From Microcystis aeruginosa NIES-2549 (GTDB lineage: Bacteria; Cyanobacteriota; Cyanobacteriia; Cyanobacteriales; Microcystaceae): a DNA stretch of 32,000 bases. A program made the translations under genes and the position numbers. Positions 4,707 through 29,949 of this stretch are shown here, one piece after another (the stretch's first letter is position 1; every line of letters starts with the position of its first letter). The stretch covers positions 3,540,001 to 3,572,000 of the forward strand of contig NZ_CP011304.1 of assembly GCF_000981785.2 (NCBI RefSeq), written 5' to 3'. The notes below the pieces were generated by a model. That model was not told the origin of the DNA. It did not search any database and saw only the letters and a program-made list of their open reading frames with translations.

Positions 4707-4757
4707 TTCATAGCTTAATTCAGCAACGCCTTTTTACAAACAGGCTGAGAGGTTCCA

Positions 4758-5093: not shown

Positions 5094-5095
5094 GG

Positions 5096-5347: not shown

Positions 5348-5370
5348 GAAATTTATTTTGCACGACTACT
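5277..5370 (-). mobile_element. 94-bp MITE, copy L (flanked by TA/TA)
   Basis: This is the reverse complement of 20573-20666. Perfect blocks of 27 bp (taagtacctaagcaaaattaattacaca, including the flanking TA) and 36 bp (tcttcactaggaaatttattttgcacgactacttag) surround a diverged T/C-rich centre. Termini are AGTA..../....TACT with TA on both sides. Confidence 0.65.
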
Positions 5371-5373
5371 TAG

Positions 5374-7053: not shown

Positions 7054-7357
7054 CTACTTAGATATACATTACAGCCATCGAACTGCTTGTTTAGTACATA
7101 GACCAAAGGCAAGCTGTGACTGGGTTATAATTTTTGGAGATGTCTAATTCACAAGAGATATATTTCCGATCCTGAACAGCTTAATCAGCAAAGGTTTAAC
7201 TGTGCCACACAGGTGTGAGAAACGCTATAGTTTCTACAATGAAGGTTTTTCACAATCTTTCGTGTATTTTTTTATTGCTGGAAGTGTCGTAAATAGATCT
7301 ATCAAAAGGCTCTTACCTAATATAATTGGGAGAAAATTACCGATCAACATTTCCCCG

Positions 7358-10246: not shown

Positions 10247-10283
10247 AAATTCCCGAATTTCAACTCTTCACGCTATTTTCGCC

Positions 10284-14279: not shown

Positions 14280-14314
14280 TCGAACAATTTTTTATCTTTC
14301 TGAAACATTATGTA

Positions 14315-14621
14315 GGGTCTGCTGAATAAATCTAAAAACCTTGTTGGGTAAGACTTTTAGACTTTTTGTCAATCAAAAAGTACCAGGCATGGGAGTGATC
14401 AGGGGGAAAATTGAGGTACTTTTTCCCTGAAAATTAGGTAGTTGACCACGGCGGTTCGACAAGCTCACCGTCCTACTCGACTGAGCTTCGCCGAACGTCC
14501 TGAAAATGGATAAAACCCCACACCCGTTCGGACTTCGGCGTGAGCTCAGTCGAACGCTGAGCTCACGGCCGAAGCCCACACCCCACACCCTGCCCCCACG
14601 AAAAACTTTTTCAGCAGCCCC
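14315..14621 (+). mobile_element. ~307-bp non-autonomous element (MITE) derived from the IS5/IS1182-like IS
   Basis: The left end 'gggtctgctgaataaatctaaaaaccttgttgggtaagacttttag' closely matches the IS left end 'gggtttgctgaataatggtaaaaaccttacaggaaagggcttttag'. The right end 'ctttttcagcagcccc' matches the IS right end 'ctttttcagcaaaccc'. There is no transposase inside. The interior is a GC-rich palindromic module (14440-14580). The target duplication is ambiguous (ATTATG at 14307-14312 and 14624-14629 if the ends are extended by TA). Confidence 0.65.
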
Positions 14622-14687
14622 TAATTATGATAAATCTCTTTATCGAGCCGGGCATTTTAAGAGAAAGGACTCATCCACGAAATACCC

Positions 14688-17600
14688 ATGATTCTCAAAG
14701 ACCTCCTCGCCGGTGGAATTCCCGCCATAACCGCTACCAGCACTTTTATCGGAATGGGAATGCTTCCCCAAAAGCTCAATGCAAACGGGGTGGATACCCT
14801 CACTGACGAACAAATCGAAGCCCTTTTCTCCAATATTCCCGCGGATTGGAGTTTCTCCGACCTAGCCGAGAGAGTCTTTGACGAGTCAACCGTAAGTGAG
14901 TCTCTAGCCGATCGACTGATCGCCTATATCGATCAAAAACACGGCGGGGAATCTCTTACCCCCGAACCGCGGGAATCATCCGAACCCGAAGGGGATAGCC
15001 CCCGAAAATTCGATATTTTTACCCTCCGAGATGAAATTGTCGAGGATTACCGGGGATACATCGAGAGCTTTCTGAGTATTAAGGACAAACGGATAAAAGA
15101 GTTCGTCAATAGGGAATTAGACCGGGGACAACTCTGGAAAGATCCCCTCGTCCAACTCAATCCCCCTTACAAACGTGGCGCGACCGTCGGCCAGCTGATC
15201 GGACGCGGGATACTCCATCAGGACTGCGATCGCTACTTCCCGAACTTCACCTTTTTCGAGCATCAAGAAACCGCCTTTCAACTAGCCCGCCAGAATTTAC
15301 CCTACGTCGTCACCACGGGAACCGGGTCGGGAAAAAGCTTGACCTATGTAGTCCCGATCATTAACGACATCCTCGAAAACCCGACATTACAGGGAGTTAG
15401 AGCTATTTTGGTCTATCCGATGAACGCGCTCATAAACTCTCAAGAGGAAGAATTCAAGAAATTTCTAGAGAATATCCCCGATAGCCCGATTAAAGTAGCT
15501 AAATATACGGGACAAGAATCTTTAACGGAAAAAGCCGAGATACAGAACAATCCGCCCCATATCCTCCTGACGAACTATGTGATGTTGGAGTTGATGCTTA
15601 CCCGCGTCCACGAGGATAAACTGGTAGCTTCGCCCGACCTGAAATTCTTGGTACTCGACGAACTGCATACCTATCGCGGTCGTCAGGGCGCGGATGTAGC
15701 CCTAGTAATCCGAAAACTCAAAAGGCGATGCGATAAGTCCTTAGTCTGTATCGGCACATCGGCCACCATGTCCACCGAGGGCGATCGGGCCGATCGGAAG
15801 CGAACCGTCGCCGAAGTCGCCAGTAAACTTTTCGGTGTCGAGATCTCCCCCGATCGAGTGATCGATGAAACCCTGGAACGCGCTATTTCCCGCCCCGATC
15901 CAACGGTAGCCGAACTACAACAGTCTCTACAGCAAGAAGTCTCCCCCGAAGAAGAACAAACCGACGAAGCTTTCCAACAGCATCCGCTCGTCGCATGGAT
16001 CGAGATGAATTTGGGATTAGAGGAGGAAGATGGCTATTTAAAACGCCGTACCCCCATATCTCTTAAGGAAGCAGCTGACCAGTTAGCCAAGTTAACCAAG
16101 ATCGATACCGGTGTCTGTCTCGATCGATTACGGGAGATGTTACTCTGGAGCGGTCGGTTAAACGCTAGTAAAACGAAGAATTCCAGAGAGGTCAGAGGTC
16201 TTCCCTTCCGCCTACATCAGTTTATTTCCCAAGGTGGCAGTGTCTATGCGACCATCGAACCCCACGAACGACGGGAATTAACCCTAGAAGGGCAGTATCG
16301 AACTACTCGTGATCGATTGCTCTTTCCGATCGTGTTCTGCCGAGAATGCGGTCACGACTATTATGTGGTTCGCTACGATTCCGAAAAGTACCAGATTACG
16401 CCTCTAATTCCCACGGCGATCGACGAGGAAAACGACGAGGATATTACCGAGGGATATTTAACTCTCGACGAACCCGATCTATGGGACATCAATGACGAGG
16501 AACGCTTACCAGATACTTGGTTTAACTTAAATAAAAGCGGACGGAAAGTCAAAAAAGATTTCGCTAAGTTTATCCCGCGAGAACTGTATGTTTATCCGGA
16601 TGGCAGGATCGTCACGGGAGCGTTTAGCACCGACGATCCGATTCAACCCGTTCGTTGTTGGTTTATTCCTAAACCCTTTTTAACTTGCTTGAACTGCGGT
16701 GTTGTGTATGATCGCAAGACTACCGAATACCGCAAACTATCCCGTCTTAGTAGTGAGGGGCGTAGTACCGCCACCACTCTACTCTGTCTCTCCACCGTCA
16801 ACCGCTTAAAGCTGAATCTGAATATTCAAGAAACTGCGGCGAAAATCCTTAGCTTCACCGATAATCGTCAGGACGCTTCCTTACAAGCAGGTCATTTTAA
16901 CGATTTCGTGCAAACTTCCTTTTTACGGGGCAGTTTAAATAGAGCTTTGCAAAACCACGGATATCTAACCCACGCGGAATTAGCGGCAAAAGTAGTGAAC
17001 GCGATGGGGCTAACTCAAGAACAATACGCTGAACAACCTGTCACCTTCGGTACCGGCAAAACTCGCAACGAGAAGGCTTTTGAGGATCTGATTCAGTATC
17101 GCCTCTACGACGATTTAAAACGGGGCTGGCGCATTGTCCAACCGAATTTAGAACAATCCGGTTTACTGGCGATCGAGTACCCGGATTTAGAAAACAACTG
17201 TCAAAATCTCGCTCCCTGGCAAAAATACCCTCATCCCGTTCTCGTCTCGGCAACTCCAGAGCAACGTTTAAAAGCGGCCAGCTTTTTACTGGATCATTTA
17301 CGGAAAAATTTAGCCCTAGACGCAGACTTACTTCAGTCAAATCGTCTCAACGAGTTACAGAGACGAGTAAATCAAGCTCTTAACCAGGCTTGGAAATTCG
17401 ATGATCATGAATACCTTCCTCCCGCAACAAAAGCTTCTCACCTTAACAATCCTCGATCGGGAGCCACGGTGAAGTTAACCGCGAAAAGTAAAGTCGGGAA
17501 GTATTTGCGATCGGAGCAATTATGGGGACACAAGGTTACGGAAGCCGAATATGAAAGCTTAATTGTATCTTTAATCAATGCTCTAGCGGATTCCGGGTAT

Positions 17601-20033
17601 CTCAAGCGAGAGGGAACGGAAATTCAGCTACGGGTGGATTCGATGGTATGGAAAGCGCAGAAAGTCGATCGGGTAAAACTCGATCCCACCGTTCGGAAAC
17701 TCCGGGATAGCCTTCTCGAAGAGCGGGAAGTGAACGCTTACTTTCAGAACTTTTATGATCGACAGGCCACGACGATCCGCAAAATGGAAGGGCGGGAACA
17801 TACTGGACAGGTTGCCAACGACAAACGCCAAGAACGAGAGGAGAAGTTTCGGAAAGGGGAACTAGCGGCTTTATTTTGCTCACCAACAATGGAGTTAGGG
17901 ATCGACATTTCCGATTTAAGTATCGTCCATCTACGCAACGTCCCTCCCTCGCCCGCAAATTACGCTCAAAGAAGTGGACGGGCCGGTCGGGGCGGACAGG
18001 AAGCCCTCGTTATCACTTATGCGGCCTACGGAAACGGTCACGATCAATATTTTTATAATCGACAGGCACAAATGGTGTCGGGGGTTGTTGTTCCCCCGAA
18101 ATTGGAACTAGCTAACCCCGATCTGGTTAAATCCCATCTTTATTCGCTCTGGCTTTCCTACACGGGGGTCGATCTAGGTAACTCGATGAATCAAATCCTC
18201 GACTTAGAGAAAGACGGATACCCGATTAAAGACGGTATCTGGCAACAGTTAAAGTTATCTTCCAATAAACTCAACCTGTGTTGGGATGATGCTCGCACGA
18301 TTCTCGGTGATGTTTATTGTCAGGGGGATCTCGCTCAAACAAACTGGTACAGTGCAGACTGGCTGAAACAGACTCTAGAAAATGCCTCTGACGAGTTCCA
18401 CAATACTTGCAATCGCTGGCGTAGGTTGTACCGAGAAGCGACCGAGCAGTTACAAAAAGCCCGCGAGACTATCGATCGAGCCGTTAGAGGTGGAGTGACC
18501 GACGAGGAGAAAAAGAAAGCGAATGTTTCAGAAGAAGATGCCAAGCGTCAACGGGACTTATTGGTAGGATCGGACAGGAAAGGGCGTTCTCAAAGCGAGT
18601 TTGAATTTTATCCCTACCGTTATTTTGCCAGCGAGGGATTTTTACCTGGATTTAATTTCCCCCGTCTCCCCGTGCGTGGTTTTATTCCCGCAGGGAACAA
18701 GGGAGAATTTATCTCCCGCCCTCGTGCCGTCGCTATTCGAGAACTAGCTCCCAGAAATATCATTTATTACGAGGGCAGTAAATTCCAGATCGCGAGAACG
18801 AGAATTTCGCCTCAAGGAGAACAGCAGTTCCGCCGAATTTCGGCTTGTTCTCGATGCGGTTATTTCCATGCCGATACGGAAGCGAATCGAGATACCTGTG
18901 AAAACTGCGGTGCTAGGCTCCAAGATCGGCTCTACCATGTTCTCGTACTCGATACGATGATTACCCGTAGAAGGGAACGGATCACCTGTGACGAGGAAGA
19001 CAGACTCAAGTACGGCTATATTCTGACCACCCATTTTCGCTACGACTCCCATAAACGTCGTAAAGCTCTAGTAACCGCGGCGGACAGTACGGAACTTCTA
19101 AAAATTTCCTACGGGGAAACCGCCAGTATCCGACGAATTAATCGAGGTTTACGATTTAATCAAGAGCGAGGATTTAGATTGGATACCGCGAAGGGAGAAT
19201 GGTTAGATGCGAAACAAGATAACCCATCCAGTAACTCGCAAGCGGGCATTAGCCTGATGGTAGAAGATACCCGTAATATTCTCGTCGTCGAACCCTGTTG
19301 GGGTAAGGCCGATCTCGCTCCGGAATTCCTAATCACCTTTCAACACGCTTTAGCGAGAGCGATACAAGCTCATTACAAATTGGAGGCCGAAGAATTAGCC
19401 TCGGAAAAATTGGGCGAGGGAGGATACATTCTCTTTTGGGAGTCTGCCGAGGGAGGAGCGGGAGTCTTAGCTCAAATTCTCGATAATCCCACATCTTTCC
19501 AGAATTTAGCCCAACAAGCCCTTGATATATGCCATTTTAAGCAGGATAAGCCCGATTGCGCTCAAGCCTGTTACGAGTGCTTGTTATCCTATCAAAATCA
19601 GTTTGACCATCCCTATCTAAATCGACATTTGATTAAAGATTTTCTAGAACAGCTTGCCGGAAGTCGGTTATCCTTCTCCCAAGAGGGCGATCGGGAACAA
19701 TCCTATCAAATCCTTCTCCAACAAAGCGATCCCAATTCGGAATACGAGAAAGTCGTGTTAAAGGCTATTTATGAGCAGGGCCTGCCACTGCCAGATCGGG
19801 CGGGAGTATATATCCCCGATGCGGACTGCAAACCTGATTTCATCTACGAGAATCTTAAAATTGCAATTTTCTGCGATGGCTCGGTTCACGATCATCGCGA
19901 TCAACAGGAACAAGATCGCGTCAAACGAGAGAATCTAAAATGGCACGCCCGTTATAAAGTTTTTAGTTTTAATTACCAATCAGACTTACAGGAGCAAATA
20001 GATAAACTACAAGCCATGTTAAGTCCAACATAA
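14688..20033 (+). CDS. drmA: DEAD/DEAH helicase fused to DUF1998 (MrfA-type Zn-binding) and a C-terminal Vsr/DUF559-like PD-(D/E)xK domain (DISARM DrmA+DrmB-like fusion; DruE-like is the alternative)
   Basis: Helicase motif I 'TTGTGSGKS', motif II 'VLDELHTY', 'GTSATM', motif VI 'YAQRSGRAGRGG'. DUF1998 hallmarks are 'CSRCGYFH...CENCGA' (~18844-18912) and 'CAQACYECLLSYQNQ' (~19558-19602). The C-terminus 'CKPDFIYENLKIAIFCDGSVHDH' resembles the Vsr/DUF559 core 'PD....A+F.DG..WH'. Confidence 0.8.
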   Translation: MILKDLLAGGIPAITATSTFIGMGMLPQKLNANGVDTLTDEQIEALFSNIPADWSFSDLAERVFDESTVSESLADRLIAYIDQKHGGESLTPEPRESSEPEGDSPRKFDIFTLRDEIVEDYRGYIESFLSIKDKRIKEFVNRELDRGQLWKDPLVQLNPPYKRGATVGQLIGRGILHQDCDRYFPNFTFFEHQETAFQLARQNLPYVVTTGTGSGKSLTYVVPIINDILENPTLQGVRAILVYPMNALINSQEEEFKKFLENIPDSPIKVAKYTGQESLTEKAEIQNNPPHILLTNYVMLELMLTRVHEDKLVASPDLKFLVLDELHTYRGRQGADVALVIRKLKRRCDKSLVCIGTSATMSTEGDRADRKRTVAEVASKLFGVEISPDRVIDETLERAISRPDPTVAELQQSLQQEVSPEEEQTDEAFQQHPLVAWIEMNLGLEEEDGYLKRRTPISLKEAADQLAKLTKIDTGVCLDRLREMLLWSGRLNASKTKNSREVRGLPFRLHQFISQGGSVYATIEPHERRELTLEGQYRTTRDRLLFPIVFCRECGHDYYVVRYDSEKYQITPLIPTAIDEENDEDITEGYLTLDEPDLWDINDEERLPDTWFNLNKSGRKVKKDFAKFIPRELYVYPDGRIVTGAFSTDDPIQPVRCWFIPKPFLTCLNCGVVYDRKTTEYRKLSRLSSEGRSTATTLLCLSTVNRLKLNLNIQETAAKILSFTDNRQDASLQAGHFNDFVQTSFLRGSLNRALQNHGYLTHAELAAKVVNAMGLTQEQYAEQPVTFGTGKTRNEKAFEDLIQYRLYDDLKRGWRIVQPNLEQSGLLAIEYPDLENNCQNLAPWQKYPHPVLVSATPEQRLKAASFLLDHLRKNLALDADLLQSNRLNELQRRVNQALNQAWKFDDHEYLPPATKASHLNNPRSGATVKLTAKSKVGKYLRSEQLWGHKVTEAEYESLIVSLINALADSGYLKREGTEIQLRVDSMVWKAQKVDRVKLDPTVRKLRDSLLEEREVNAYFQNFYDRQATTIRKMEGREHTGQVANDKRQEREEKFRKGELAALFCSPTMELGIDISDLSIVHLRNVPPSPANYAQRSGRAGRGGQEALVITYAAYGNGHDQYFYNRQAQMVSGVVVPPKLELANPDLVKSHLYSLWLSYTGVDLGNSMNQILDLEKDGYPIKDGIWQQLKLSSNKLNLCWDDARTILGDVYCQGDLAQTNWYSADWLKQTLENASDEFHNTCNRWRRLYREATEQLQKARETIDRAVRGGVTDEEKKKANVSEEDAKRQRDLLVGSDRKGRSQSEFEFYPYRYFASEGFLPGFNFPRLPVRGFIPAGNKGEFISRPRAVAIRELAPRNIIYYEGSKFQIARTRISPQGEQQFRRISACSRCGYFHADTEANRDTCENCGARLQDRLYHVLVLDTMITRRRERITCDEEDRLKYGYILTTHFRYDSHKRRKALVTAADSTELLKISYGETASIRRINRGLRFNQERGFRLDTAKGEWLDAKQDNPSSNSQAGISLMVEDTRNILVVEPCWGKADLAPEFLITFQHALARAIQAHYKLEAEELASEKLGEGGYILFWESAEGGAGVLAQILDNPTSFQNLAQQALDICHFKQDKPDCAQACYECLLSYQNQFDHPYLNRHLIKDFLEQLAGSRLSFSQEGDREQSYQILLQQSDPNSEYEKVVLKAIYEQGLPLPDRAGVYIPDADCKPDFIYENLKIAIFCDGSVHDHRDQQEQDRVKRENLKWHARYKVFSFNYQSDLQEQIDKLQAMLSPT

Positions 20034-20572
20034 GACCCTTTTTCGTCCGATTGTGGTTTAACGCCAGTTCGGTTTAAGGGAATTTTGCCATAGCTTCCAC
20101 GAAAGAATAGGAGTTTCAGGCTACGGTAGTATCAGGGTTTTAGCTTATCCCGAACTGAGGTTAAAAAATTAACAAAACCCTTACTGCATGCAGCTTCTCA
20201 GAAAAAATTGACAAGCCGTCACTGGGTACATTTTTCGCTTGAACATGGCTGTATCTGGAGTAGAGCGATTCCCTAAAGTTCGCTGTATAGCGATCGCTAA
20301 CCTGATGGCAATTAATCTTTAGAGTAAGGGATACCTCTGTAGCCATGTTTTTACTGGTTTTCTGACCCGAAACAAGCTATAATGGTCTAAAGGTCAAATT
20401 TGAAAAATTTTGCCTCAAACCCTATCAGCGTAAAGACTTCAGGATTTTGTGTCTAATAGTTCATCAGTATTATATCGCTTTAACTCAGGCTCTCTAAGAC
20501 TTTTAGCGATAGCTAGTATGTTTATACAGGGGAAGTCAAGTAATGAGATGCTTCCCATAACTTTTCTCTCTA

Positions 20573-20666
20573 AGTAGTCGTGCAAAATAAATTTCCTAGT
20601 GAAGATAGGCAAGAAGCAAGAAGCAAAAGCTTTATCGCAATGTGTAATTAATTTTGCTTAGGTACT
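20573..20666 (+). mobile_element. 94-bp MITE, copy R (flanked by TA/TA)
   Basis: Inverted copy of 5277-5370. The surrounding sequence (20556-20572 plus 20667-20715) is contiguous as an unfilled paralogous site at 27912-27975, which defines the insertion to the base, with a TA (or TAA) duplication. Confidence 0.7.
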
Positions 20667-20668
20667 TA

Positions 20669-20715
20669 AAATCTCCAACCTTGGTTGGCAAATATTTAGA
20701 GTAGCCAACATTAAA
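20669..20715 (+). promoter_or_regulatory. Conserved 5' element with inverted repeat CCAACC-TT-GGTTGG (copy 1, ~220 nt upstream of CDS 20936)
   Basis: 'aaatctccaaccttggttggcaaatatttagag' is near-identical to 27929-27961. Its function as an operator or promoter is inferred only. Confidence 0.35.
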
Positions 20716-20935
20716 CTGTTTTACAAGTAAACTTAAGTTTTTTTCATAATAGGTTTGGTATGGACGATAATTTCACGCTAAAAAATCTTTGCAGAAAAAT
20801 AAGATTGACACTTACGTCGCTAAAAAATAGGTCAGAAATCATTCGAGATTTTATTCTGGACTTAGAGACTTATTTATAGTCGTATGAGCGGCACATAACA
20901 ACATTAACTACTTTCAATTAAAATCAATAATCAAA

Positions 20936-22585
20936 ATGAGCAATGTCAAGATAAGACTAAATTTTACAACTAATTTATTTACAGGTATTTTAATTACCTT
21001 TGGAATTGCTATATCTGGAATTATTAGTCAAAACAGTGCAGTAATGGCTACTAATATCGACAATCGAATAACTCCAAATTTATCAAAAACAACTAAAAAG
21101 ACCGTGGCAATTTGCATCTTTGGTTTTTGTGTAGATACTCCTTCTCTTCCAACGCAAATACAAAATACTATAGAACAAGGTGCTTCTTCAATTATATTGC
21201 AACAATTCCGTTCTTTTCTCAGTAACGAAATTCCTATATCAGGAACAGAACATAAACTGTATCCTGTTACATATTCTCTCTTTGGCGAAGCATTTTTACC
21301 ATCTAAATTATATTTAAATCACTTTAAAGACTCTCATTTTATTCAGTCTGGAGACTATCAAATTCCTGCACATTTTTATTGTACTCATGTTTATACTTTC
21401 AATGGCTCTGGAAATCGTTATCGCCTTGCAAAAATTAATGGCAAAATGTCACAAGCACTAAGTGCATTGTATAAGCGTGCCAGTTTAAGCGAAGTGCCAG
21501 TTCAAGATATTCAGAAATTATCTTGGAGCATTCAAACAGGAGTTTCTTACCATAAATTACCTGAATCTTCTCAAATATTAGTCGATCAGTTAATTCCTGA
21601 ATATCGCCAAAATATGAATGATAGTTTTATGACTAATACAATAAATTTTTATGATAATCTTTCTCGTCAATTCTCTTTACCATCTTTGGATAAGTTTCTA
21701 AGTAATTTGGGAGAGATAGGAACTCTTGTGAAGGCTTTACTCCGCGCACGAGAGCAGGTTATCAATACAAGACTAGATTATTCCACACTTGCTAATTCTT
21801 TTGTTATTCAACAAAATCTTAATTTAATGGGAGGCATTGAAAGTACACCTTGGAGCCAAGTAAATGAGCAACTGTACCTACGGTTAATTGCTCCACAAGG
21901 AGCGATGAATGATGGAATTATACAAGTTAGAATTCTTAGGACAAACAAACAATCTAAAAAGGTTACTTCCCATCGTCTATTTGCAATGAATACCGATATA
22001 AATTCATTTAAACTGCTGACCGTAAATGATAATTCTGTTTCTTCATTACCTACGGCAGGAGAATTAAGGAATATAATATCTCAATTAATTGGTATTCCTG
22101 AAGCAAACGGTCATCAAGCAATTACTGCAAGTATTTTATCTCCCCCTGAAATAATGTCAAGGACTGATAGATTGGGAGCGCTTCAAGCAACTAAAGAGTT
22201 TAAACCTGGTACTGTTGGCTACGGTGTATATAAGGCAATTGAAGCTCTGTACTATGGAAACGAATTTTTAGGTGGATATGGAGCATTTGCAAATAAATAT
22301 AGCGCAGAAATTGGTGCTTTTTTTCAGCGTTCAGATATTCAAGAATTAATGAAACAACCAATTAATAGTCAAGCAAATTTATTAGTTGCTAAGGCAGAAT
22401 TTGACTATTGGACTTTCGTACAAAATAACCCACGATCTACAGCAGAAGATAAAGAAGGGGCAAGAATAGCTCTTAAGTTTTCACCAGAGGTCAGAGCCAA
22501 ACTACAAGTGTATTATGCGAATGGAGACTATACACGCGCTAATTTGTTAATTATCAAAAATTATCCTGGAATTATTTTTCACTAA
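20936..22585 (+). CDS. Secreted/membrane-anchored hypothetical protein (549 aa)
   Basis: Long ORF with an N-terminal hydrophobic segment, 'LFTGILITFGIAISGIISQNSAVMA'. I recognised no catalytic motif. Confidence 0.6.
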   Translation: MSNVKIRLNFTTNLFTGILITFGIAISGIISQNSAVMATNIDNRITPNLSKTTKKTVAICIFGFCVDTPSLPTQIQNTIEQGASSIILQQFRSFLSNEIPISGTEHKLYPVTYSLFGEAFLPSKLYLNHFKDSHFIQSGDYQIPAHFYCTHVYTFNGSGNRYRLAKINGKMSQALSALYKRASLSEVPVQDIQKLSWSIQTGVSYHKLPESSQILVDQLIPEYRQNMNDSFMTNTINFYDNLSRQFSLPSLDKFLSNLGEIGTLVKALLRAREQVINTRLDYSTLANSFVIQQNLNLMGGIESTPWSQVNEQLYLRLIAPQGAMNDGIIQVRILRTNKQSKKVTSHRLFAMNTDINSFKLLTVNDNSVSSLPTAGELRNIISQLIGIPEANGHQAITASILSPPEIMSRTDRLGALQATKEFKPGTVGYGVYKAIEALYYGNEFLGGYGAFANKYSAEIGAFFQRSDIQELMKQPINSQANLLVAKAEFDYWTFVQNNPRSTAEDKEGARIALKFSPEVRAKLQVYYANGDYTRANLLIIKNYPGIIFH

Positions 22586-22803
22586 AGTATGAACAAAGAC
22601 TACTTATTAACTAGCACAAATATCTCGAATTCTTACCGAACAACGGTTTTATACAAAATCAGTGTGACCAAATCTCAAACGCTATTGACAATAGGTCAAT
22701 TTTGTAATCCGTTGAAATGTTTACACTGATATCCGCTAGGTGCTTCTTATTTATAGCGTTTATGCTATCATACCCTTGACCCTTCTGAACCGTTATAAAA
22801 GCT

Positions 22804-23346
22804 ATGACATCTCTTAAAAAGATAGTAAATTTACTTAACTGTTTTCTTTGTTTAAATTTATTAAATTTAATTGCTTACAAACCAATGTTAGGACAATTAT
22901 TTATTGCCAGTCCTATTTTGAAGAATAGTGATGATAAGCAAATCTTAGAAGAACCTAAATTAGTGTTAACTAGAAACAAAAAATATGCAGAATACGAAGG
23001 TCAACTTGTCGCACCAGGACATGGTAATCAAAATTATAAAATTATTCGCATAGATACAACTAATTTTATTACAGGTGGAACTTTAAGAATAGATATTCAG
23101 GTTGGCTCTGGTCAAAGCCAAGCCTCTTTTGATTTATTTGCAGAGGATGCAGTCATTCCTATTGCGGGCAGACCACAACAAAGTTTAGCTGGTGCTTATG
23201 ATATTTCACCTGATTCGGGGACATCTCTTACTTATAAATTTGATAAGGGAGAAGTCTTCCAATTTGGTGCAACTGGCAATTGGTTTAGTCCAAAAGGAAG
23301 TCGTAATAGCTATAGAATTAAAGCTTATGTAATTCCCAAAATTTAG
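22804..23346 (+). CDS. Small exported hypothetical protein (180 aa), beta-rich
   Basis: N-terminal hydrophobic leader. The C-terminal ~100 aa looks like a beta-sandwich ('GGTLRIDIQVGSGQSQASFDLFAED...'). No family was recognised. Confidence 0.5.
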   Translation: MTSLKKIVNLLNCFLCLNLLNLIAYKPMLGQLFIASPILKNSDDKQILEEPKLVLTRNKKYAEYEGQLVAPGHGNQNYKIIRIDTTNFITGGTLRIDIQVGSGQSQASFDLFAEDAVIPIAGRPQQSLAGAYDISPDSGTSLTYKFDKGEVFQFGATGNWFSPKGSRNSYRIKAYVIPKI

Positions 23347-23445
23347 TCTTTATAATTGCCTTTTAACAAATAGATGAGGAAAATCTATGGTCAATCTTTT
23401 AACTTATAGTATGGCTAGTGTTTTTATATTGCATGAGTAATTCGG

Positions 23446-24051
23446 TTATACACTGCCTGTAAGAATTGCGATAATACCAAGAATTGTATGGCTAAGAGTA
23501 ATACTATAAAAATTCTTAAAGCGATTATAGTGATATGCCCAATATAAACCGATAATTAAACTTAATAAAACTGTTAGCAGGTCTTGATAAATGCTATGAG
23601 CAAAACTATAAAGAATAGCAGTGATGATAATGATAGAACCTTGATTAAGTTGAATTTGAGCAAGTCGATTAAAAAGGTAGGAACGGTATAAAAATTCTTG
23701 TAGTGGAGATGAAAGTGAAATGTAAAATACATAGAAATACCAAGGAATACCAGTGTTATCAATTCGCATTCCATGATTAAGATAAAAAACAATCATTAAA
23801 ACGGAAGATATTATGGTTACGGGTAAAATATCTTTAATCGCTGGTAATAAATTTTGATGATTAAAGCCTAAATCTGCTGGAGCAATCTCGTTGAGCATCG
23901 CTAGACCGATAATCAAAGCTCCTGTGATGGTTAATACTAAAAAGCGATCACTAAAGGAAATAACCTTTGTTAGAATTAAAACAACAGGTAGGATATAGAG
24001 AAAAGAGATCACTACAGAAGTTGTTATTTGTGATGATGATAAGAGTTTCAT
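23446..24051 (-). CDS. CPBP-family (CAAX/Abi-type) intramembrane protease
   Basis: Polytopic 201-aa protein with 'LQEFLYRSYLF' (EExxxR-type motif 1), 'LYSFAHSIY' (FxxxH motif 2) and 'TLSHTILGI' (motif 3 His). Its start overlaps the stop of the upstream CHAT gene (ATGA at 24048-24051). Confidence 0.7.
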   Translation of the reverse strand: MKLLSSSQITTSVVISFLYILPVVLILTKVISFSDRFLVLTITGALIIGLAMLNEIAPADLGFNHQNLLPAIKDILPVTIISSVLMIVFYLNHGMRIDNTGIPWYFYVFYISLSSPLQEFLYRSYLFNRLAQIQLNQGSIIIITAILYSFAHSIYQDLLTVLLSLIIGLYWAYHYNRFKNFYSITLSHTILGIIAILTGSV

Positions 24052-26381
24052 GAGCGTAAGAAATTAATAAGTTTTTTAAAGCTTACAAGTTTTTTTTCTA
24101 ATTGTTTCCCTTCAATCAAGAAAATGATAATAGGATATATGACGAGCATCAAAAAGAAAAACCCACCTGTCCAAGTAACAAAGAGACTTTTACTAGCAAT
24201 ACCGAAGGATTGGTTTATTTTTGACAAAATAAATTGATTTATTGAAATTGAGAAAACGAAAATGGAAATAAAAAGAAAAGCTAAACTTGCTTTGTGATTC
24301 CATATTTTAATTCTAGGATTTTTGATTATAAAAACAATAGTCATTAATAGAAGAAAAGCAATAAATAAATAAACAAAAATTCTGAGATTGGTTTCTAAGT
24401 TATCTGTTTGAAATAATAAACTTTTAACTTGTTTGGTATAATAATTATCAAAAGGTATCCAGAGAAGTAATCCGATATCACACAACAAAATATATTTGAG
24501 ATACTTATCAATGTTAAATACAGAGTTGTCATTAAAAATATTTTCCGACAAAAAAGCTGTCAATTCAAAAGCACAGAAAAAAATTGCCCAGTAATTGAAC
24601 AAATAAAAAAAGCGACTTATAGAGTAATGCTTTGACCAAAGTTGATGACTATGGGCAATACTCAAAAAAATTCCATTAGCTTCATTATTTTTTTCAGGAC
24701 GCTGAATAATTCCCTTAATAAAAGCTTCGATATATTGTTTATCAAGATTAACTTTCTCTTTTAAATTAATTTCATTTAACCATTGAGGAGGAAGTTGATA
24801 CTTATTAATATTTTTACTGATTAGAATTGCATTTAATTCCTGTATTTCAAGAATAATACTGCTATCGGGTTTAATTTCAAATAAGAATAAAGGATCAGAA
24901 TTTAATTCCGTAAAAATAGCGATTACAGATGTAAATGCAATAAGAGTAGTAATTATCAAAATTATGCCTGTTTTTTTTAGTATTAAGCTAAAAGCTCTAT
25001 AAAGAGAGAATAGTGACAAAGGCAAAAATAATGAGGGATAAACAATGATATGAGGATAAAGCTGTGCATAAAACTGCAAAGTATTAAGACTGCCAAATTC
25101 TCCTAAAATACTTAATGGTAATCCAACTACTATAACCATTAAAATAACTAATAAAATTAATTCAATTTTGGAACTAAAGCGACGTTCTATAAACAAACTA
25201 TCCCAAGTTAAATCAAAGGCTTCTGGATTAGCGACAATAACGGGTAGCCAACTTTTTCCTGATGGTTTAGCTCCCTTATCATATTCCAATAAGAGTTGTT
25301 CACGAGCATAACGCATGGATGCAAATATAGATTTTTCCTTTTCAACAAAAGCCTTTAGCAAATGATTAAGTAATGTACCTGCAAAGAAAGAATCAACTCT
25401 TTCCCGCATTACGATACAGTAAGGAAGATTCAGAGAAGTTAATTGATTGGCTAATCCTAAACCGTCACAGGAGTTAAAAATTGCCAGTTGTAGTTTGTCA
25501 TTAATCAATTTTTGCATCCATTTGGTTAATTCATTAATCTCAATTTCTTTTGTTTGAAGTTTTTGATTATCATCTAGCCAACTAATTTGTAGCCAGCCAA
25601 TTCTACCGTCTGGATTACTATGACTATGACCCGCAAAAAAGAAGATATGCCAACCGGCTGGTTCTTCTAGTGCTTCAATTAATTTTGAGTAATTCGGCTG
25701 GTAAAGTGTCTGAATAAAAGCACCATATTTTTTTAATCGATCAAGAGATTCTTTTTCTTGCTTATATTCATTATTTTCATCTAATTCGTTATCTGCGAAA
25801 ATAGCTAAAATCCGAACTCTTGTATCTAAGCGGTTAATGGTTTGTTTTTGTTCGGGACGTGCGAAATCCGTTGCGCTCACAGATAACTCTGTATTTTTGT
25901 GCAGACGAAATAAAGGATACAAAAATTCCCATTCTTGCCAAGGAAATCCTCTTAATATTCGATCTTCAGTTTGTATAAAAAGTTGAATTTCTTCTTGTGA
26001 ATTTGCGTATTTTTCTAAGGTATTTTGAATTTTTGAGTCAACTTCACCCCTTTCGTTAATCCAACTTTGAGTATCTGTTAACCATTGATTCATTTCTGTT
26101 TTTAAATTTTCAGCCAGTTTCTGTAAACTAATATTACCATCGGTACTTAATAGTTGCTCAGAAAGAGATTTTATTTTAGGTCGTCGGGGAGAGTCTGGAA
26201 TGATGTAATTTTTCCAGATATTAAATGTCTGACTAAGTTGCTCTGGCATAATTGAAAGATAGGAGCTTCTTTCTTCCAAACGTCCTTTAGAGTCAGAGAT
26301 AGTCAAAGTGACGGGTAGAACTGCCATTCGGTTTGGCAATTGAAGACAGGAACCAATTTTAAAATAAATTTTTTTTGACAT
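24048..26381 (-). CDS. CHAT-domain (caspase-like His/Cys) protease fused to a C-terminal ~8-TM membrane domain
   Basis: 'WHIFFFAGHSHSNPDG' places the catalytic His252 codon at 25626-25628. 'LQLAIFNSCDGLGLA' places the Cys305 codon at 25467-25469. The spacing and flanking pattern are typical of CHAT domains. Residues ~400-777 contain about 8 long hydrophobic helices. Confidence 0.7.
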   Translation of the reverse strand: MSKKIYFKIGSCLQLPNRMAVLPVTLTISDSKGRLEERSSYLSIMPEQLSQTFNIWKNYIIPDSPRRPKIKSLSEQLLSTDGNISLQKLAENLKTEMNQWLTDTQSWINERGEVDSKIQNTLEKYANSQEEIQLFIQTEDRILRGFPWQEWEFLYPLFRLHKNTELSVSATDFARPEQKQTINRLDTRVRILAIFADNELDENNEYKQEKESLDRLKKYGAFIQTLYQPNYSKLIEALEEPAGWHIFFFAGHSHSNPDGRIGWLQISWLDDNQKLQTKEIEINELTKWMQKLINDKLQLAIFNSCDGLGLANQLTSLNLPYCIVMRERVDSFFAGTLLNHLLKAFVEKEKSIFASMRYAREQLLLEYDKGAKPSGKSWLPVIVANPEAFDLTWDSLFIERRFSSKIELILLVILMVIVVGLPLSILGEFGSLNTLQFYAQLYPHIIVYPSLFLPLSLFSLYRAFSLILKKTGIILIITTLIAFTSVIAIFTELNSDPLFLFEIKPDSSIILEIQELNAILISKNINKYQLPPQWLNEINLKEKVNLDKQYIEAFIKGIIQRPEKNNEANGIFLSIAHSHQLWSKHYSISRFFYLFNYWAIFFCAFELTAFLSENIFNDNSVFNIDKYLKYILLCDIGLLLWIPFDNYYTKQVKSLLFQTDNLETNLRIFVYLFIAFLLLMTIVFIIKNPRIKIWNHKASLAFLFISIFVFSISINQFILSKINQSFGIASKSLFVTWTGGFFFLMLVIYPIIIFLIEGKQLEKKLVSFKKLINFLRS

Positions 26382-26394
26382 AGCAATCTCTTTT

Positions 26395-27066
26395 CTATCC
26401 TGGAAAGCTTTCTACTATCGTAATTTCATTGAGAGTAAAACTAATTTTAAAAGAATCATTGCTTTTACAAACAAAACTATGTGCTATCGTAAGATCAAGA
26501 ATATTAGTTTGATCATTAGTTCTTTGAGGGGGAAAAAATTCTCCTTCTTCATCGAAAACAGAAACAATTAGGTTTTCAGGCAAATAACCTTTACCATTTT
26601 GAGGTCTAACTTTCAAATAGATGCGAATTTCTTTGTTATTAATTTCGTCAATCGTTAAAATTAATTCGAGTAGATGTTGGTCTAATTCAATTACTTTTTT
26701 TCGACTAATTGATTTCCCAAGTGTTGCCGTTTTAAATCCTTGATTCTCAAGACAATTTTGCCAGAAACTCAATAGGGAAACTATATCACTTTTTATAGAT
26801 TCAATAGTGGTTGATGTTTCTCTAACAGCAGATTCTTGAATCGTTATTGTATTTTTAGATATATCTAAAATTTTAGCGTTTGATTTAGCTTCTTCTAACA
26901 CTATAATTTTTTTTAGACTAAAGGCTTCTAATTCTAAAATAGAAATACCGAGTGCTTTTTCTAATTCTCCAGACTCAAATAGTTCGCATAACCGATCAAA
27001 TATTTGATAATTACCCTTCAGTTGAATTATAGTATTTTGATTTTGTGTGCCAGTCTGATCAGTCAT
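26395..27066 (-). CDS. DUF1822-like protein (short form)
   Basis: The C-terminal block 'IRIYLKVRPQNGKGYLPENLIVSVFDEEGEFFPPQ...FKISFTLNEITIVESF' resembles, from memory, the conserved C-terminal module of cyanobacterial DUF1822 proteins ('..YLP.NL.L.+LDE.GE....V.....+..F.I.+.L.....E.F'). It ends 13 nt upstream of the CHAT gene. Confidence 0.45.
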   Translation of the reverse strand: MTDQTGTQNQNTIIQLKGNYQIFDRLCELFESGELEKALGISILELEAFSLKKIIVLEEAKSNAKILDISKNTITIQESAVRETSTTIESIKSDIVSLLSFWQNCLENQGFKTATLGKSISRKKVIELDQHLLELILTIDEINNKEIRIYLKVRPQNGKGYLPENLIVSVFDEEGEFFPPQRTNDQTNILDLTIAHSFVCKSNDSFKISFTLNEITIVESFPG

Positions 27067-27182
27067 GATTTGCTCCTCAATTTTACCTGTTGAATATTTG
27101 TGAATTTAATGATTTTCAGAAATCATTTATTACTTAGTCTTGAGAAAATAATCCCAATAAATTTAACTAAGATATTATTATC

Positions 27183-27758
27183 TTACCCTATTATTTGTAT
27201 ATTTTCCTCCTTAATATCAACTTTAAGAAGCCTGAATGCTTCAACTATTATGGAATGATTGATTGAATTTTTATCTGTCTTACTCAGCTTAATATTAATC
27301 CCTATCTCTTCATTTTTAACTGAGGGATAAGTATTTTTTCTATAATTCCAAGTGTAGGCTGAGTTAACATGATGCTCAAGGTAGATAGGAACTCGCGCCC
27401 AATCACCTATTTGTTTGCCAGAAGCCAGAAAACTTGTCCATTTGTAAATACTTTTAGACAGGTCTCCTTTAATATTAGTTAAACATAAATAGCTTTCTAT
27501 CTGTTTTACATCATAGCCTTGTAATAGTAAACATAACCAACATTTTTCCTTTGGTTTTAGTGTTTTATTTCCTCTTTGAGCGGACTTCCAGGCTTCATTA
27601 GGAACCTTATCAATAGATTCATACTTATCTTGAAGAATAAGTACACATTTCAGATCCTCAAATAATCTATCTAAATCCCAATCTTTTTTAGTCTGGGGAC
27701 AAAGAGTACAAAACCCCCCTCGACAAAGATCACATTTTTGCGTCTCCATTTTGTTCAT
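27183..27758 (-). CDS. Zn-ribbon plus LuxR/sigma70-region-4-like HTH protein
   Basis: N-terminal 'CDLCRGGFCTLCP' (4 Cys). 'LKPKEKCWLCLLLQGYDVKQIESYL...LSKSIYKW' follows the LuxR/GerE pattern ('LT.RE.EVL.LL.QG.S.KEIA..L.....V..H...IY.KL'). It is the first gene of the minus-strand operon and is divergent from CDS 28037. Confidence 0.45.
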   Translation of the reverse strand: MNKMETQKCDLCRGGFCTLCPQTKKDWDLDRLFEDLKCVLILQDKYESIDKVPNEAWKSAQRGNKTLKPKEKCWLCLLLQGYDVKQIESYLCLTNIKGDLSKSIYKWTSFLASGKQIGDWARVPIYLEHHVNSAYTWNYRKNTYPSVKNEEIGINIKLSKTDKNSINHSIIVEAFRLLKVDIKEENIQIIG

Positions 27759-27928
27759 AAGCTAATTAAGAATTTATCGCAAAGGCTCTCCTGAATATAT
27801 GGTCAAAAACACACTTAGGTCTTTTAACAAGGCTTTAAGCATTAACGAACCATATTCTGCTATACATTTTCGCTACTGAAGTCAGAAAAGCCGTCACAGA
27901 ATCAAATATAACATAACTTTTCTCTCTA

Positions 27929-27975
27929 AAATCTCCAACCTTGGTTGGCAAATACTTAGAGCAGCAGATATTAAA
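27929..27975 (+). promoter_or_regulatory. Conserved 5' element with inverted repeat CCAACC-TT-GGTTGG (copy 2, ~60 nt upstream of CDS 28037, in the divergent intergenic region)
   Basis: 'aaatctccaaccttggttggcaaatacttagag' is near-identical to 20669-20701. Including flanks, similarity extends over 27912-27990. Confidence 0.35.
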
Positions 27976-28036
27976 GTTTTATTAGATTCCTTAATCTAGC
28001 CATAAAGTCTTGCACAACAGTAGCTTAGGAGATAAA

Positions 28037-29350
28037 ATGGGTAGTTCAACACAGACTCTTCTCGTTGGTAGTAGCGTTGTTGCGATTACTGTCACCGCTT
28101 CGACTTTTGCCATCAACAAAGCTCAAGAAACCTTAGCCTATCGCCATGAATATTTTGAAAAGGGACAAATGGCTTATCAATCCGTTAATTGTCCAGAGGC
28201 AACAGCTGATTTTACTCGGGTAGAGGAAACAGCCTCGTTTCCTTTCAATAACTTTGATGGTCTGACAGACCTCGCTCAACGAAAGATGGCAACTTGTTCT
28301 TCGTTTATGACCGCCAATCAGCAAGCAAAACAGGCAGAGCAACAGAAAAATTTATCAAAAGCCTTGTTTAGCCGGTATCTTTTTAATGAGCAACATGATA
28401 AAGATGAGTTAACGCAAGCAATGAGTCGCTCAATCACTGGGTTATTTTCAACCTACGGTGTGGCCAAATTGGCTGGGAGCGAATCTTGTGACGGCTTGGA
28501 CAAATTAATAAATGGTGGAGCAATACCTAATATTCAGGTAAATTTACCTTACTTTCATGATTCTTGTGCAAAATTCTACGATAAACAAGGCCAATCTCCA
28601 CAAGCACTAGCCCAACGTCGCCGTTTCCTTGCTGTTGCACCGAGGCATCCTTTATCTCGAAATGTCCAGATAGCGCTGGTCAAAAACTCGAACATTTGTT
28701 CTCATGCTTCAACATTTCAAGATATTCCTAATATTGCGAAATTGCCAGCTTTGATGCCTGTAGTTTACATAAATTGTTCACAGGCTTACTACAACACAAT
28801 TTCTTATCCTGAATCTAAGTCATTTCTTCAGACTTTACGACAGAATTATCCCAACCATTCTTTTGCAAAAGTCGCCAATAACTGGCTTTTCTCAATTAAC
28901 CAAGAAATTAAAATGGTTAAGTCCGAAATTTACCAGTCTGCCGAAACCATCAAAGCTAAACTCGCATTATGTACAACTACAGGGGTTGTTGGTTTGGGCT
29001 GGGTAATTGATATTTGGGAGTTTACCACTGGAAGGAGCTGCGGTCTCGAAGAACGCCTTGAGGATTGGGAACGTTACGGTGGATTGATTCCTTGGTTTGG
29101 GGAAGCAAAAGGACTTGGTAAGGGAAAAAGGGTGTACGATTTTATTCAGGTTGCCTCCCGTTGGCAAGGTATTGACAAAACGCAATCCGCAGCACAGGAC
29201 GACCAATCTCTCGTTGAATTGCTTAAGGACAAACAAATGATCCTATTATTTGCTCACCATAATCCGAAACTTGCTAAATTGGTAGTACCTCGACTTAATC
29301 AGACCGTTGATACCAGCAAAAAAACTCTATTTTTAGAGTATCTTAAGTAA
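28037..29350 (+). CDS. Membrane-anchored protein with a pre-toxin TG (PT-TG)-like motif and a short C-terminal module
   Basis: The ORF is open from TTG 28010. I prefer ATG 28037 because of the upstream 'taggaga' Shine-Dalgarno. N-terminal TM segment 'LLVGSSVVAITVTASTFAI'. 'VIDIWEFTTGRSCGLEERLEDWERYGGLIPWFGEAKGLGKG' fits the PT-TG pattern (D..E..TG....E.L..WER...liP..G). The PT-TG call was made by eye. Confidence 0.5.
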   Translation: MGSSTQTLLVGSSVVAITVTASTFAINKAQETLAYRHEYFEKGQMAYQSVNCPEATADFTRVEETASFPFNNFDGLTDLAQRKMATCSSFMTANQQAKQAEQQKNLSKALFSRYLFNEQHDKDELTQAMSRSITGLFSTYGVAKLAGSESCDGLDKLINGGAIPNIQVNLPYFHDSCAKFYDKQGQSPQALAQRRRFLAVAPRHPLSRNVQIALVKNSNICSHASTFQDIPNIAKLPALMPVVYINCSQAYYNTISYPESKSFLQTLRQNYPNHSFAKVANNWLFSINQEIKMVKSEIYQSAETIKAKLALCTTTGVVGLGWVIDIWEFTTGRSCGLEERLEDWERYGGLIPWFGEAKGLGKGKRVYDFIQVASRWQGIDKTQSAAQDDQSLVELLKDKQMILLFAHHNPKLAKLVVPRLNQTVDTSKKTLFLEYLK

Positions 29351-29373
29351 CCTATCTCTTTTTTCTCTGACCT

Positions 29374-29949
29374 ATGCTATATACAAAATTGACTTACCCT
29401 TTATTGGCTACTTTTTTACTTTGGGTTTCTATTATCCCAGCAGATATTGTACGCTCTGAAATTCCTGCTCATTTAGAGCGATTGAGAAAGACTAACAAAT
29501 GTCCTAAATGCGATTTACGCGGGGCGGATTTAACTGGCGCAAAGTTAAGTGGGGCTGATCTGTCAGGGGCAAACTTGAGTAATGCTATACTTACGGTAGC
29601 CTCACTGAGTGCGGCAAATTTATCAGGGGCAAATTTGACTAATGCGGACTTAGCAGGGGCAAAACTCGTAACGGCAAACTTATCCGGGGCAAATCTATCA
29701 GGAATGACAAGGGGCCATAAGGGTTCGGGATCTAATGGGGTAAACTTTAGCTATGCTAATTTGACTAATGCCAAATTTGTAGATGCCGACGTAAGTACGT
29801 GTGATTTCCGAGAAGCAAATTTAACTAATACTGATTTTAGAGGTGCAAATTTATGGAGGGCAAATTTAAGTGGTTCTAATACCACAGGTGCCGACTTCCG
29901 AGGAGCCAAATTTGATGATACAATTATGCCTGATGGTAGCCGGAGGTGA
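29374..29949 (+). CDS. Exported pentapeptide-repeat protein, paralog 1
   Basis: Hydrophobic leader, conserved '[21 protein letters not shown]', then A(D/N)LxG pentapeptide runs ('[21 protein letters not shown]...'). It starts 23 nt after the upstream stop. Confidence 0.85.
   Translation: MLYTKLTYPLLATFLLWVSIIPADIVRSEIPAHLERLRKTNKCPKCDLRGADLTGAKLSGADLSGANLSNAILTVASLSAANLSGANLTNADLAGAKLVTANLSGANLSGMTRGHKGSGSNGVNFSYANLTNAKFVDADVSTCDFREANLTNTDFRGANLWRANLSGSNTTGADFRGAKFDDTIMPDGSRR

Follow-up and report, generated by a model that had tools for sequence, protein, structure and literature searches.

A probable TRADD-N/EACC2-caspase cassette of Microcystis aeruginosa and its possible role as a membrane-controlled proteolytic switch

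The four-gene operon, its protease and its CPBP protein

The window analysed here is a stretch of 32,000 nucleotides of Microcystis aeruginosa NIES-2549 (NZ_CP011304.1, positions 3,540,001 to 3,572,000 of the forward strand), and its subject is an operon of four genes, very probably one of the TRADD-N/EACC2-caspase systems that Kaur et al. described in 2021. Gene 1 (27183..27758, 191 aa) encodes a small putative DNA-binding regulator with the first half of a TRADD-N domain at its C-terminus, gene 2 (26395..27066, 223 aa) the second TRADD-N half followed by a DUF1822 C-terminal beta-rich domain, gene 3 (24048..26381, 777 aa) a CHAT caspase-like protease that sits between an N-terminal constant domain and a polytopic membrane domain, and gene 4 (23446..24051, 201 aa) a CPBP/Abi-family membrane protein with predicted translational coupling to gene 3. 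An earlier note, made from the letters alone, had described four tightly packed co-directional genes ending in an ATGA overlap, and this layout was confirmed from the sequence: all four open reading frames (ORFs) lie on the minus strand at exactly the coordinates given there, genes 1 and 2 are separated by 116 nt and genes 2 and 3 by 13 nt, and the stop of gene 3 and the start of gene 4 overlap by 4 nt (TCATGAAA). The organism is M. aeruginosa, since the gene 4 protein is 100% identical to proteins of this species; its identity to copies in many Microcystis assemblies is 95-99%. No terminator-like hairpins were found within the cluster, and in a promoter scan promoter-like hexamers occurred at chance frequency. 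PADLOC-DB 2.0 models gave no match to the four proteins at E up to 0.1.

The AlphaFold model of gene 3, built on an alignment of 46 homologs (pLDDT 81, pTM 0.73), begins with a beta-rich domain, followed by a disordered linker (63-83), and continues with an alpha/beta domain (~130-390) and a helical membrane region (404-776) that has a small soluble insert. The N-terminal alpha+beta domain (residues 1-125, 26007..26381), delimited from the model and from conservation, is beta-rich with a helix in residues 1-60 and continues in helices to ~125, and the linker, of low pLDDT, holds the nearly invariant Arg66. This domain is called EACC2-like only; the label of Kaur et al. for the Calothrix ortholog is 'CASPASE+TM_region', and the file 'domain1.aln' of their supplement was rejected as an EACC2 alignment, being a metazoan TRADD-N-like set.

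The gene 3 protein had no Pfam match, including CHAT PF12770, at E up to 0.1, and the protease domain (residues ~130-390, 25212..25994) was assigned by fold and transitive homology and not by a direct profile match. Foldseek with the alpha/beta domain returned Csx29 (8eey_B, E 1e-6), separases and caspases. A protein search recovered a large cyanobacterial family of ~750 aa (707 matches, most with PF12770), and PF12770 is borne by most gene 3 homologs at 31-48% identity, including ~100 full-length ones. G251-H252-S253 and N303-S304-C305-D306-G307 are invariant in 46 full-length homologs, with the codons of the catalytic His252 at 25626-25628 and Cys305 at 25467-25469, just where the earlier note had placed an intact dyad. 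Homology and modelling thus show gene 3 to be a membrane-embedded CHAT (caspase-fold) protease with an intact His/Cys dyad. The sole NCBIfam match of gene 3 was HetF (NF045509, E 0.002), and orthology to it was rejected, as the score of 16.3 bits is far below the cut-off of 1200 and only residues 222-311 match.

The fused polytopic membrane domain was also found as described, at residues ~401-777. As delimited by structure and hydropathy (residues 401-777, 24051..25181) it has 377 aa, ~8-10 helices and a soluble insert of ~90 aa, and its conserved polar residues are E428, E502, S587, R590 and Y593. By sequence it is an orphan family: only 32 relatives were found among 1.84 billion representative proteins, all either within CHAT proteins or stand-alone (340-430 aa), and whole-model Foldseek gave no PDB analogue at E below 0.2. 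One of these relatives (P0137) is fused to Pfam EAD8, effector-associated domain 8; it occupies 804-1980 of L092, a contig of just 1980 nt from a cyanobacterial metagenome-assembled genome (MAG). The part of gene 3 in front of the membrane domain, from residue 1 or 24 to 396, is common to 85 proteins with other C-termini. The GC minimum of the AT-rich stretch at 20000-28000, 0.263, falls on the membrane-domain coding region.

Gene 4 matched Pfam PF02517 (Rce1-like/CPBP) with E 1.6e-10 and 41.6 bits against a gathering cut-off of 22.4, and NCBIfam weakly with the JDVT-CTERM protease MrtJ (E 2.7e-4, 21.6 bits, cut-off 75). A comparison of the gene 4 protein with PDB sequences gave no match, so its motifs were taken from the subfamily alignment and not from an alignment to Rce1. 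P-x-QEFxYR, YSxxH and SHxxLG are invariant in 10 orthologs. The canonical catalytic motifs of CPBP proteins are EExxxR, FxxxH and HxxxN/D. Against these motifs, gene 4 has QExxxR, with the first Glu replaced by Gln, and HxxxG, with Asn replaced by Gly, both without exception in the 10 orthologs; of the four canonical catalytic positions, two are substituted in the whole subfamily. N180, which lies nearby, is invariant and might compensate. Judged from these motifs, gene 4 may be a variant enzyme or a non-catalytic partner, and of the protease proposed in the earlier note the family membership and the coupling to the membrane domain hold, but it may not be active.

The coupling was counted by profile searches over the six-frame ORFs of 100 loci, which hold 102 genes with the constant N-terminal module, 16 of them with the window-type membrane domain. 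In 14 of the membrane variants the sequence extends far enough for a judgement, and 12 of these have a window-type CPBP gene directly downstream (a further copy, the thirteenth, is truncated by a contig end); such a gene lies downstream of none of the 71 variants with other C-termini. At the two exceptions, L091 and L010, the place of the CPBP gene is taken by a stand-alone paralog of the membrane domain. In the reciprocal check, 3 of 3 sampled divergent CPBP relatives and the Microcystis copies directly follow a CHAT-membrane gene. By these counts CPBP is the specific partner of the membrane domain and not of the protease; this tie of the Microcystis-type CPBP to the membrane variant, with its altered motifs, is not mentioned by Kaur et al. 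2021 and is new here. The two exceptional loci (L091 5605-11277 and L010 4195-7702) form a distant clade of the CHAT-membrane family in which the paralog has 345-360 aa, and the operon head of L091 carries an extra CHAT-only gene of 191 aa.

Genes 1 and 2 and the split TRADD-N domain

Gene 2 matched DUF1822 (PF08852) with E 3.4e-11 at profile positions 260-369 of 370, the C-terminal third, corresponding to residues 113-221 (26404..26730). Ahead of this domain, a hidden Markov model (HMM) of TRADD-N, built with 84 positions from the bacterial rows of the alignment of Kaur et al., matched residues 13-47 (26926..27030; beta3-alpha2-beta4, with an 'ESGEL' motif) at positions 47-81 only, with 18 bits and E 0.002 among 6861 ORFs, and hhalign also aligned this half, with a probability of 97%. 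Orthologs from Calothrix, Crocosphaera and Nostoc gave the same half match, as did three loci whose proteases have other C-termini.

The other half was located through fused HTH+TRADD-N+DUF1822C proteins, which are encoded at the related loci L053, L014 and L017. In hhalign profile-profile comparison the gene 1 family aligns to residues 6-176 of the fused protein (probability 97%, E 1e-10) and the gene 2 family to residues 156-348 (probability 100%, E 2e-41). The C-terminus of gene 1 is the point at which the fusions run on into a conserved Gly-Ser hairpin and beta3, and its segment ~150-191 (27186..27311), identified from this alignment as the beta-alpha-beta N-terminal half of TRADD-N, ends at the beta2/beta3 hairpin. 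The AlphaFold model of gene 1, resting on a shallow alignment of 7 sequences, has a strand at 156-159, a helix at 168-177 and a strand at 187-190. Against the full Kaur TRADD-N alignment gene 1 reached P 0.002-0.007 in the right register by hhalign; a search of all ORFs with an HMM of the N-terminal half missed the C-termini of gene 1, and concatenation of genes 1 and 2 did not extend the TRADD-N match. The split-TRADD-N claim therefore rests on collinearity with the fused homologs and not on the profile. Taken in this way, it is well supported from sequence that genes 1 and 2 are the fission of one protein with the break inside the TRADD-N domain, and we infer that the two halves reassemble across the two gene products.

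The family of gene 1 itself is less distinct: no Pfam family matched, and only 8 close homologs were found. Residues ~65-111 (27426..27566) are a weak LuxR/GerE-like helix-turn-helix (HTH) candidate, with AlphaFold helices at 69-79, 84-90 and 99-111, an hhalign P of 0.002 to GerE in the expected register and an NCBIfam match to BglJ at E 0.083. Foldseek with the gene 1 model returned nothing (best E 2.9), and its profile gave spurious channel matches only against PDB sequences. DNA binding by gene 1 is thus weakly supported by sequence and model; Kaur et al. label the ortholog 'HTH'. The earlier note had named the products a Zn-ribbon/LuxR-like HTH protein, a DUF1822-like protein, a CHAT protein and a CPBP protease, of which the last three family labels stood, the HTH retained weak support and the Zn-ribbon was rejected, only one CxxC being conserved.

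A sister variant of the cassette, seen in Trichormus, Anabaena, Myxacorys and others, has a divergent ECF sigma factor as its gene 1, with a match to RpoE (2q1z, E 1e-3) and to Sigma70_r2, and the DUF1822 protein is full length and without TRADD-N. DUF1822-C lies upstream of 13 of the 16 membrane variants and of 48 of the 76 non-membrane variants, which shows, by gene order, that the regulator+DUF1822 pair goes with the protease module whatever its C-terminus.

Class, distribution and surroundings of the cassette

Kaur, Iyer, Burroughs and Aravind (2021, eLife 10:e70394) defined two-gene TRADD-N systems computationally, in the second gene of which a caspase follows a constant alpha+beta domain (EACC2) and the C-terminus varies greatly. 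Their Figure 3-source data 1 lists a 196-aa 'DUF1822 family protein' of Calothrix sp. NIES-2100 (WP_096606018.1). At that locus (L006) we found proteins of 179, 196, 766 and 200 aa, all orthologous to the window genes, the CHAT-membrane proteins sharing 47% identity over 98% of their length. As the listed locus is orthologous gene for gene, the four-gene architecture has already been catalogued, and the suggestion of the earlier note that it was undescribed is withdrawn. The assignment to this class is considered highly probable, on a caspase/CHAT fold with its dyad, orthology to a listed instance, an upstream DUF1822 protein (with a weak regulator HTH) and an adjacent TRADD-N, of which the profile sees only the C-terminal half in gene 2.

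The order small regulator, DUF1822 protein, CHAT-membrane protein and CPBP recurs in Crocosphaera XPORK-15E, Trichormus variabilis plasmid C, Calothrix NIES-2100, Nostoc TCL26-01 (in two copies), Anabaena PCC 7108, Myxacorys, Symploca SIO1C2 and another MAG, and the cassette is also present in Anabaena subtropica, Rhizonema and Fischerella. This co-occurrence, which the note had put forward as a check, supports, at the level of gene order, the four genes as a genuine conserved functional unit. A genome scan gave at least 597 relatives, nearly all cyanobacterial, most of which match over residues ~24-396 only and differ in the C-terminus; the C-terminal slot is filled by CHASE2, STAND NTPase, WD/beta-propeller or kinase domains. 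The full-length family was found on three plasmid records and the N-terminal protease module on 40 cyanobacterial plasmids, and no phage record carried either. In Symploca sp. SIO1C2 (L093 3766-9249) another protease gene of this superfamily, this one ending in CHASE2, comes directly after the cassette, so that two systems lie in tandem.

These data bear on a reading of gene 3 as a housekeeping or developmental protease like HetF, controlling the envelope or cell division apart from any conflict. HetF of Anabaena is a CHAT protease of a cyanobacterium whose cellular substrate is defined, in that it degrades PatU3 (PMC9457339, PMC8406250), and it is the only NCBIfam match of gene 3, if a very weak one (E 0.002). 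The sequence is conserved at 95-100% over many Microcystis assemblies, and the cassette is flanked by housekeeping genes in Anabaena, Myxacorys and Crocosphaera. However, the HetF score of 16 bits against 1200 comes from the catalytic-His region only, the position of the cassette shifts between genomes and between Microcystis strains, Nostoc TCL26-01 holds two copies and plasmids hold others, and the protease module has been shuffled onto many C-termini. Mobility, multiple copies and C-terminal shuffling are hallmarks of accessory, diversifying systems, and a HetF-like housekeeping role is considered improbable.

Within Microcystis, positions 22671-29364 of the window are the only part common to three other genomes (blastn, 97% identity). 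This shared block contains a 180-aa gene convergent to the operon (22804..23346, plus strand), the operon itself and a divergent 446-aa gene (28010..29350, plus strand), and synteny breaks on both sides. The 180-aa protein has a signal-peptide-like N-terminus and no family match in Pfam, NCBIfam or PADLOC, and its gene is a conserved neighbour within Microcystis only. The 446-aa protein is membrane-anchored, with a weak YfiO/BamD-like TPR match as its only family match; Crocosphaera XPORK-15E encodes a 438-aa homolog in the same position (L001 7093-8409), and no such gene was found next to the cassette in the Nostocales contexts inspected. It may be functionally linked to the operon as a lineage-specific fifth component.

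The two neighbours also raise the question of whether CHAT and CPBP form a maturation or sorting pair for an exported substrate, one of these proteins for example, on the model of MrtJ. Two genes for exported or membrane proteins do flank the operon inside the conserved block, and gene 4 has the weak MrtJ match noted above (E 2.7e-4), though at 21.6 bits against a cut-off of 75. The 180-aa gene, however, is kept beside the cassette in Microcystis only and the 446-aa gene in Microcystis and Crocosphaera only, a C-terminal sorting signal is visible in neither protein, and the canonical catalytic residues of CPBP are partly missing, so that we regard such a pair as very improbable.

Left of the shared block the window differs in composition and content. 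The GC content is 0.26-0.34 in the operon, 0.5 in the left region and ~0.40 in the right flank (28-32 kb); positions 20000-28000 are markedly AT-rich, and the window is a mosaic of three base compositions (the operon with its left neighbours, the right flank and the island). The left region is strain-specific, because blastn sharing stops at 22671. It holds a composite defence locus (7202-20033, GC ~0.5) that lies 3.4 kb and two genes from the operon and is absent at this site in the three other Microcystis genomes. Its genes encode a DpdE/DrmD-like SNF2 helicase (7202-10246, DpdE model E 9e-201), a DrmMI/type IIG-like methylase (10284-14279) and a DruE-like helicase of 1781 aa with a DUF1998/MZB domain (14688-20033), a mixture of Dpd, DISARM and Druantia that matches no single named system cleanly. 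The restriction-like, DISARM-like locus of the earlier note is therefore real, with DpdE/DrmD, DrmMI and DruE models matched. Its adjacency carries no weight, because the other Microcystis genomes share only 22671-29364, and a functional link between it and the operon was rejected, the island not being at this site in them. The flanks of the cassette in nine non-Microcystis genomes are differing, unrelated and mostly housekeeping genes, and in these nine contexts, a small sample, no recurrent defence neighbours were seen, helicase or toxin-antitoxin genes being occasional. These contexts thus gave no sign of the enrichment near defence genes for which the note had proposed a test, and its conflict or regulated-proteolysis module remains plausible, in agreement with the published computational reading, without the defence-island argument.

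Other features of the window are listed here for completeness. A Mad8/DndH/HerA-like ATPase with a TrwB/FtsK-type domain (582-1676), a 540-aa protein of no family (1669-3291) and an OEP-like fragment (3092-3889) lie at its left end, and positions 41-3889 may be a further defence or conjugation remnant in the high-GC island. A mobile-element cluster (3997-7004) comprises an InsA-like Zn-ribbon ORF (3997-4398), a DDE transposase (5502-7004) and the antitoxin PrlF (4758-5093, E 2.5e-41); the list of ORFs of at least 100 aa has no YhaV toxin next to PrlF. Between the island and the shared block a 549-aa low-GC ORF (20936-22585) has no family in Pfam, NCBIfam or PADLOC and is not in the compared Microcystis loci. 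Short dispersed repeats at 5275-5356 and 20667-20723 match intergenic sequence of Microcystis sp. LEGE 00066 (L095 12881-12955 and 6065-6119) at 88-89% identity, one of these matches lying just upstream of the operon of that strain, and they may be MITE-like elements at rearrangement points. On the right, just outside the shared block, lies a 191-aa pentapeptide-repeat protein (29374-29949, Pfam E 3e-38) with a signal/TM-like N-terminus.

Possible function and comparison with known systems

As the best explanation overall we tentatively favour a Microcystis copy of the TRADD-N/EACC2-caspase cassette that acts as a membrane-controlled proteolytic switch; the mechanism set out below is proposed somewhat more tentatively still. 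The membrane domain with its CPBP partner would be the input or gate. On triggering, for which phage infection, envelope damage or other stress are candidates, the cytoplasmic CHAT domain would cut the adaptor complex of the gene 1 and gene 2 products, joined via the reconstituted TRADD-N fold, and perhaps its own linker as well, behind the N-terminal domain and near Arg66. Cleavage would free the gene 1 regulator and change transcription, and might set the N-terminal constant domain loose as a further effector, a logic that can be likened to a protease-run sigma/anti-sigma switch. An input role of the C-terminal slot is favoured because the relatives hold sensor-type domains there (CHASE2, STAND, WD, kinase), and the pairing of an ECF sigma factor with a full-length DUF1822 protein in the sister variant speaks for the switch logic. 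By analogy, the switch would parallel both Csx29-Csx30-RpoE (PMC9825189) and the sensor-protease-effector logic of EACC1 systems (10.1101/2025.11.14.688446). A more specific version, which on present grounds is unlikely, has CHAT dock on, or cleave, the split TRADD-N adaptor formed by genes 1 and 2, while an orphan polytopic membrane sensor, gated by the altered CPBP, turns a membrane or envelope signal into proteolytic release of the regulator. If this were true, the signal sensed could be phage adsorption or injection, and the cassette would represent a new input type for prokaryotic caspase-like signalling together with the first split TRADD-N adaptor.

Several results weigh against a switch. 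No experimental paper on this architecture was found in the literature. DNA binding by gene 1 is weakly supported, its C-terminus escapes the profile of the TRADD-N N-terminal half, and the profile of window-type gene 1 shows no similarity to the ECF-type gene 1 (probability 0.5%). The fusion of the membrane domain to EAD8 in one protein suggests an effector and not a sensor, and Kaur et al. 2021 (eLife 10:e70394) themselves proposed that multi-TM regions 'might form membrane pores'.

The last two points lead to the main rival, in which the membrane domain is a latent pore effector unleashed by CHAT on infection and the CPBP/Abi protein is its antidote, in the way that Abi proteins act toward membrane-active bacteriocins. 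The strict coupling of CPBP and membrane domain (12 of 14 against 0 of 71, with 3 of 3 in the reciprocal check) would be expected of such a pair, the stand-alone copy that replaces CPBP in the distant clade suggests oligomerisation, EACC1-caspase modules have been shown to be cleavage-activated pore formers, and the superfamily is common on cyanobacterial plasmids; the EAD8 fusion (P0137) and the pore suggestion of Kaur et al. count on the same side. Yet the C-terminal slot of the homologs holds sensor-type domains and not toxins, and the membrane domain, large and polytopic, with a soluble insert and polar residues that are conserved, is unlike known pore-forming hairpins. There is also no PADLOC match and no phage-borne copy, and the cassette sits in a 97%-conserved block in Microcystis and between housekeeping flanks elsewhere, with no recurrent defence neighbours. 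A latent pore would moreover have no obvious sensor and would give the regulator+DUF1822 pair no role. We therefore hold the pore effector to be rather unlikely and keep the membrane-controlled switch as the working explanation.

Explanations of programmed cell death and bloom collapse in cyanobacteria, Microcystis among them, repeatedly draw on caspase-like proteases, and to our knowledge the trigger, substrate or output is known for almost none of these proteases. The cassette is compact, is conserved in many cyanobacterial genera, with Microcystis, Crocosphaera and several Nostocales among its carriers, and has clear candidate partners in a regulator, an adaptor, a protease and a membrane protein, and therefore offers a tractable way into the coupling between a membrane signal and bacterial caspase-like proteolysis. 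Work on it would for the first time put to experiment the TRADD-N/EACC2 systems that were predicted in 2021, for which the split TRADD-N and the strict pairing of membrane domain and CPBP give concrete, falsifiable interaction predictions. Should it prove to be only a stress-sigma switch, it would be of specialist interest.

The closest known system is that of Calothrix NIES-2100, which has the same four genes in the same order, the same DUF1822 family, the same half TRADD-N match and the same CPBP/Abi partner; there is no architectural difference, and the Microcystis locus is another species' copy. The account of Kaur et al. 2021 consists of a table row and general text, without mention of a TRADD-N domain split over two genes. 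In type III-E CRISPR the sigma factor RpoE is bound by Csx30, and Csx29 is the protease that cleaves Csx30 (PMC9825189). This Craspase (Csx29/Csx30/RpoE) shares with the window the fold of the protease, for which Csx29 is the best structural match, and its encoding together with a small regulator and adaptor pair. It differs in that the window protease has no TPR arm, genes 1 and 2 are unrelated in sequence to Csx30/Csx31, and the activator would be the membrane domain, whereas that of Csx29 is target RNA. The window has 26 ORFs of at least 100 aa; 18 of them were scanned with Pfam or PADLOC and showed no CRISPR effector, no search for CRISPR arrays having been run.

The EACC1-caspase modules (Kaur et al. 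2020; Evans et al. 2025, 10.1101/2025.11.14.688446) likewise have a constant small domain, a caspase-like protease, interchangeable third domains and activation by site-specific proteolysis, and they include the pore formers shown experimentally by Evans et al. to be activated by cleavage. EACC1 is, however, another domain, and the EACC2-like domain of the window is fused in cis, N-terminal to the protease. HetF, a divisome component of Anabaena/Nostoc, is a membrane-associated cyanobacterial CHAT protease of ~800 aa as well, but its domain order and membrane region are unlike those of gene 3, and partner genes of this kind are not described in the abstracts of PMC9457339 and PMC8406250.

With the CPBP/Abi family (Rce1 and the bacteriocin-immunity Abi proteins) gene 4 shares a polytopic protein of ~200 aa and three motif regions in order. 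The Abi-domain proteins Abx1 (partner CovS, PMC3578759) and SpdC (partner WalK, PMC5854430) regulate membrane histidine kinases; as its motifs are altered, gene 4 stands nearer in spirit to these two non-proteolytic regulators than to Rce1. New here are the division of TRADD-N between two genes, a CPBP that goes with the membrane domain specifically and has altered motifs, and the membrane domain itself as an orphan family.

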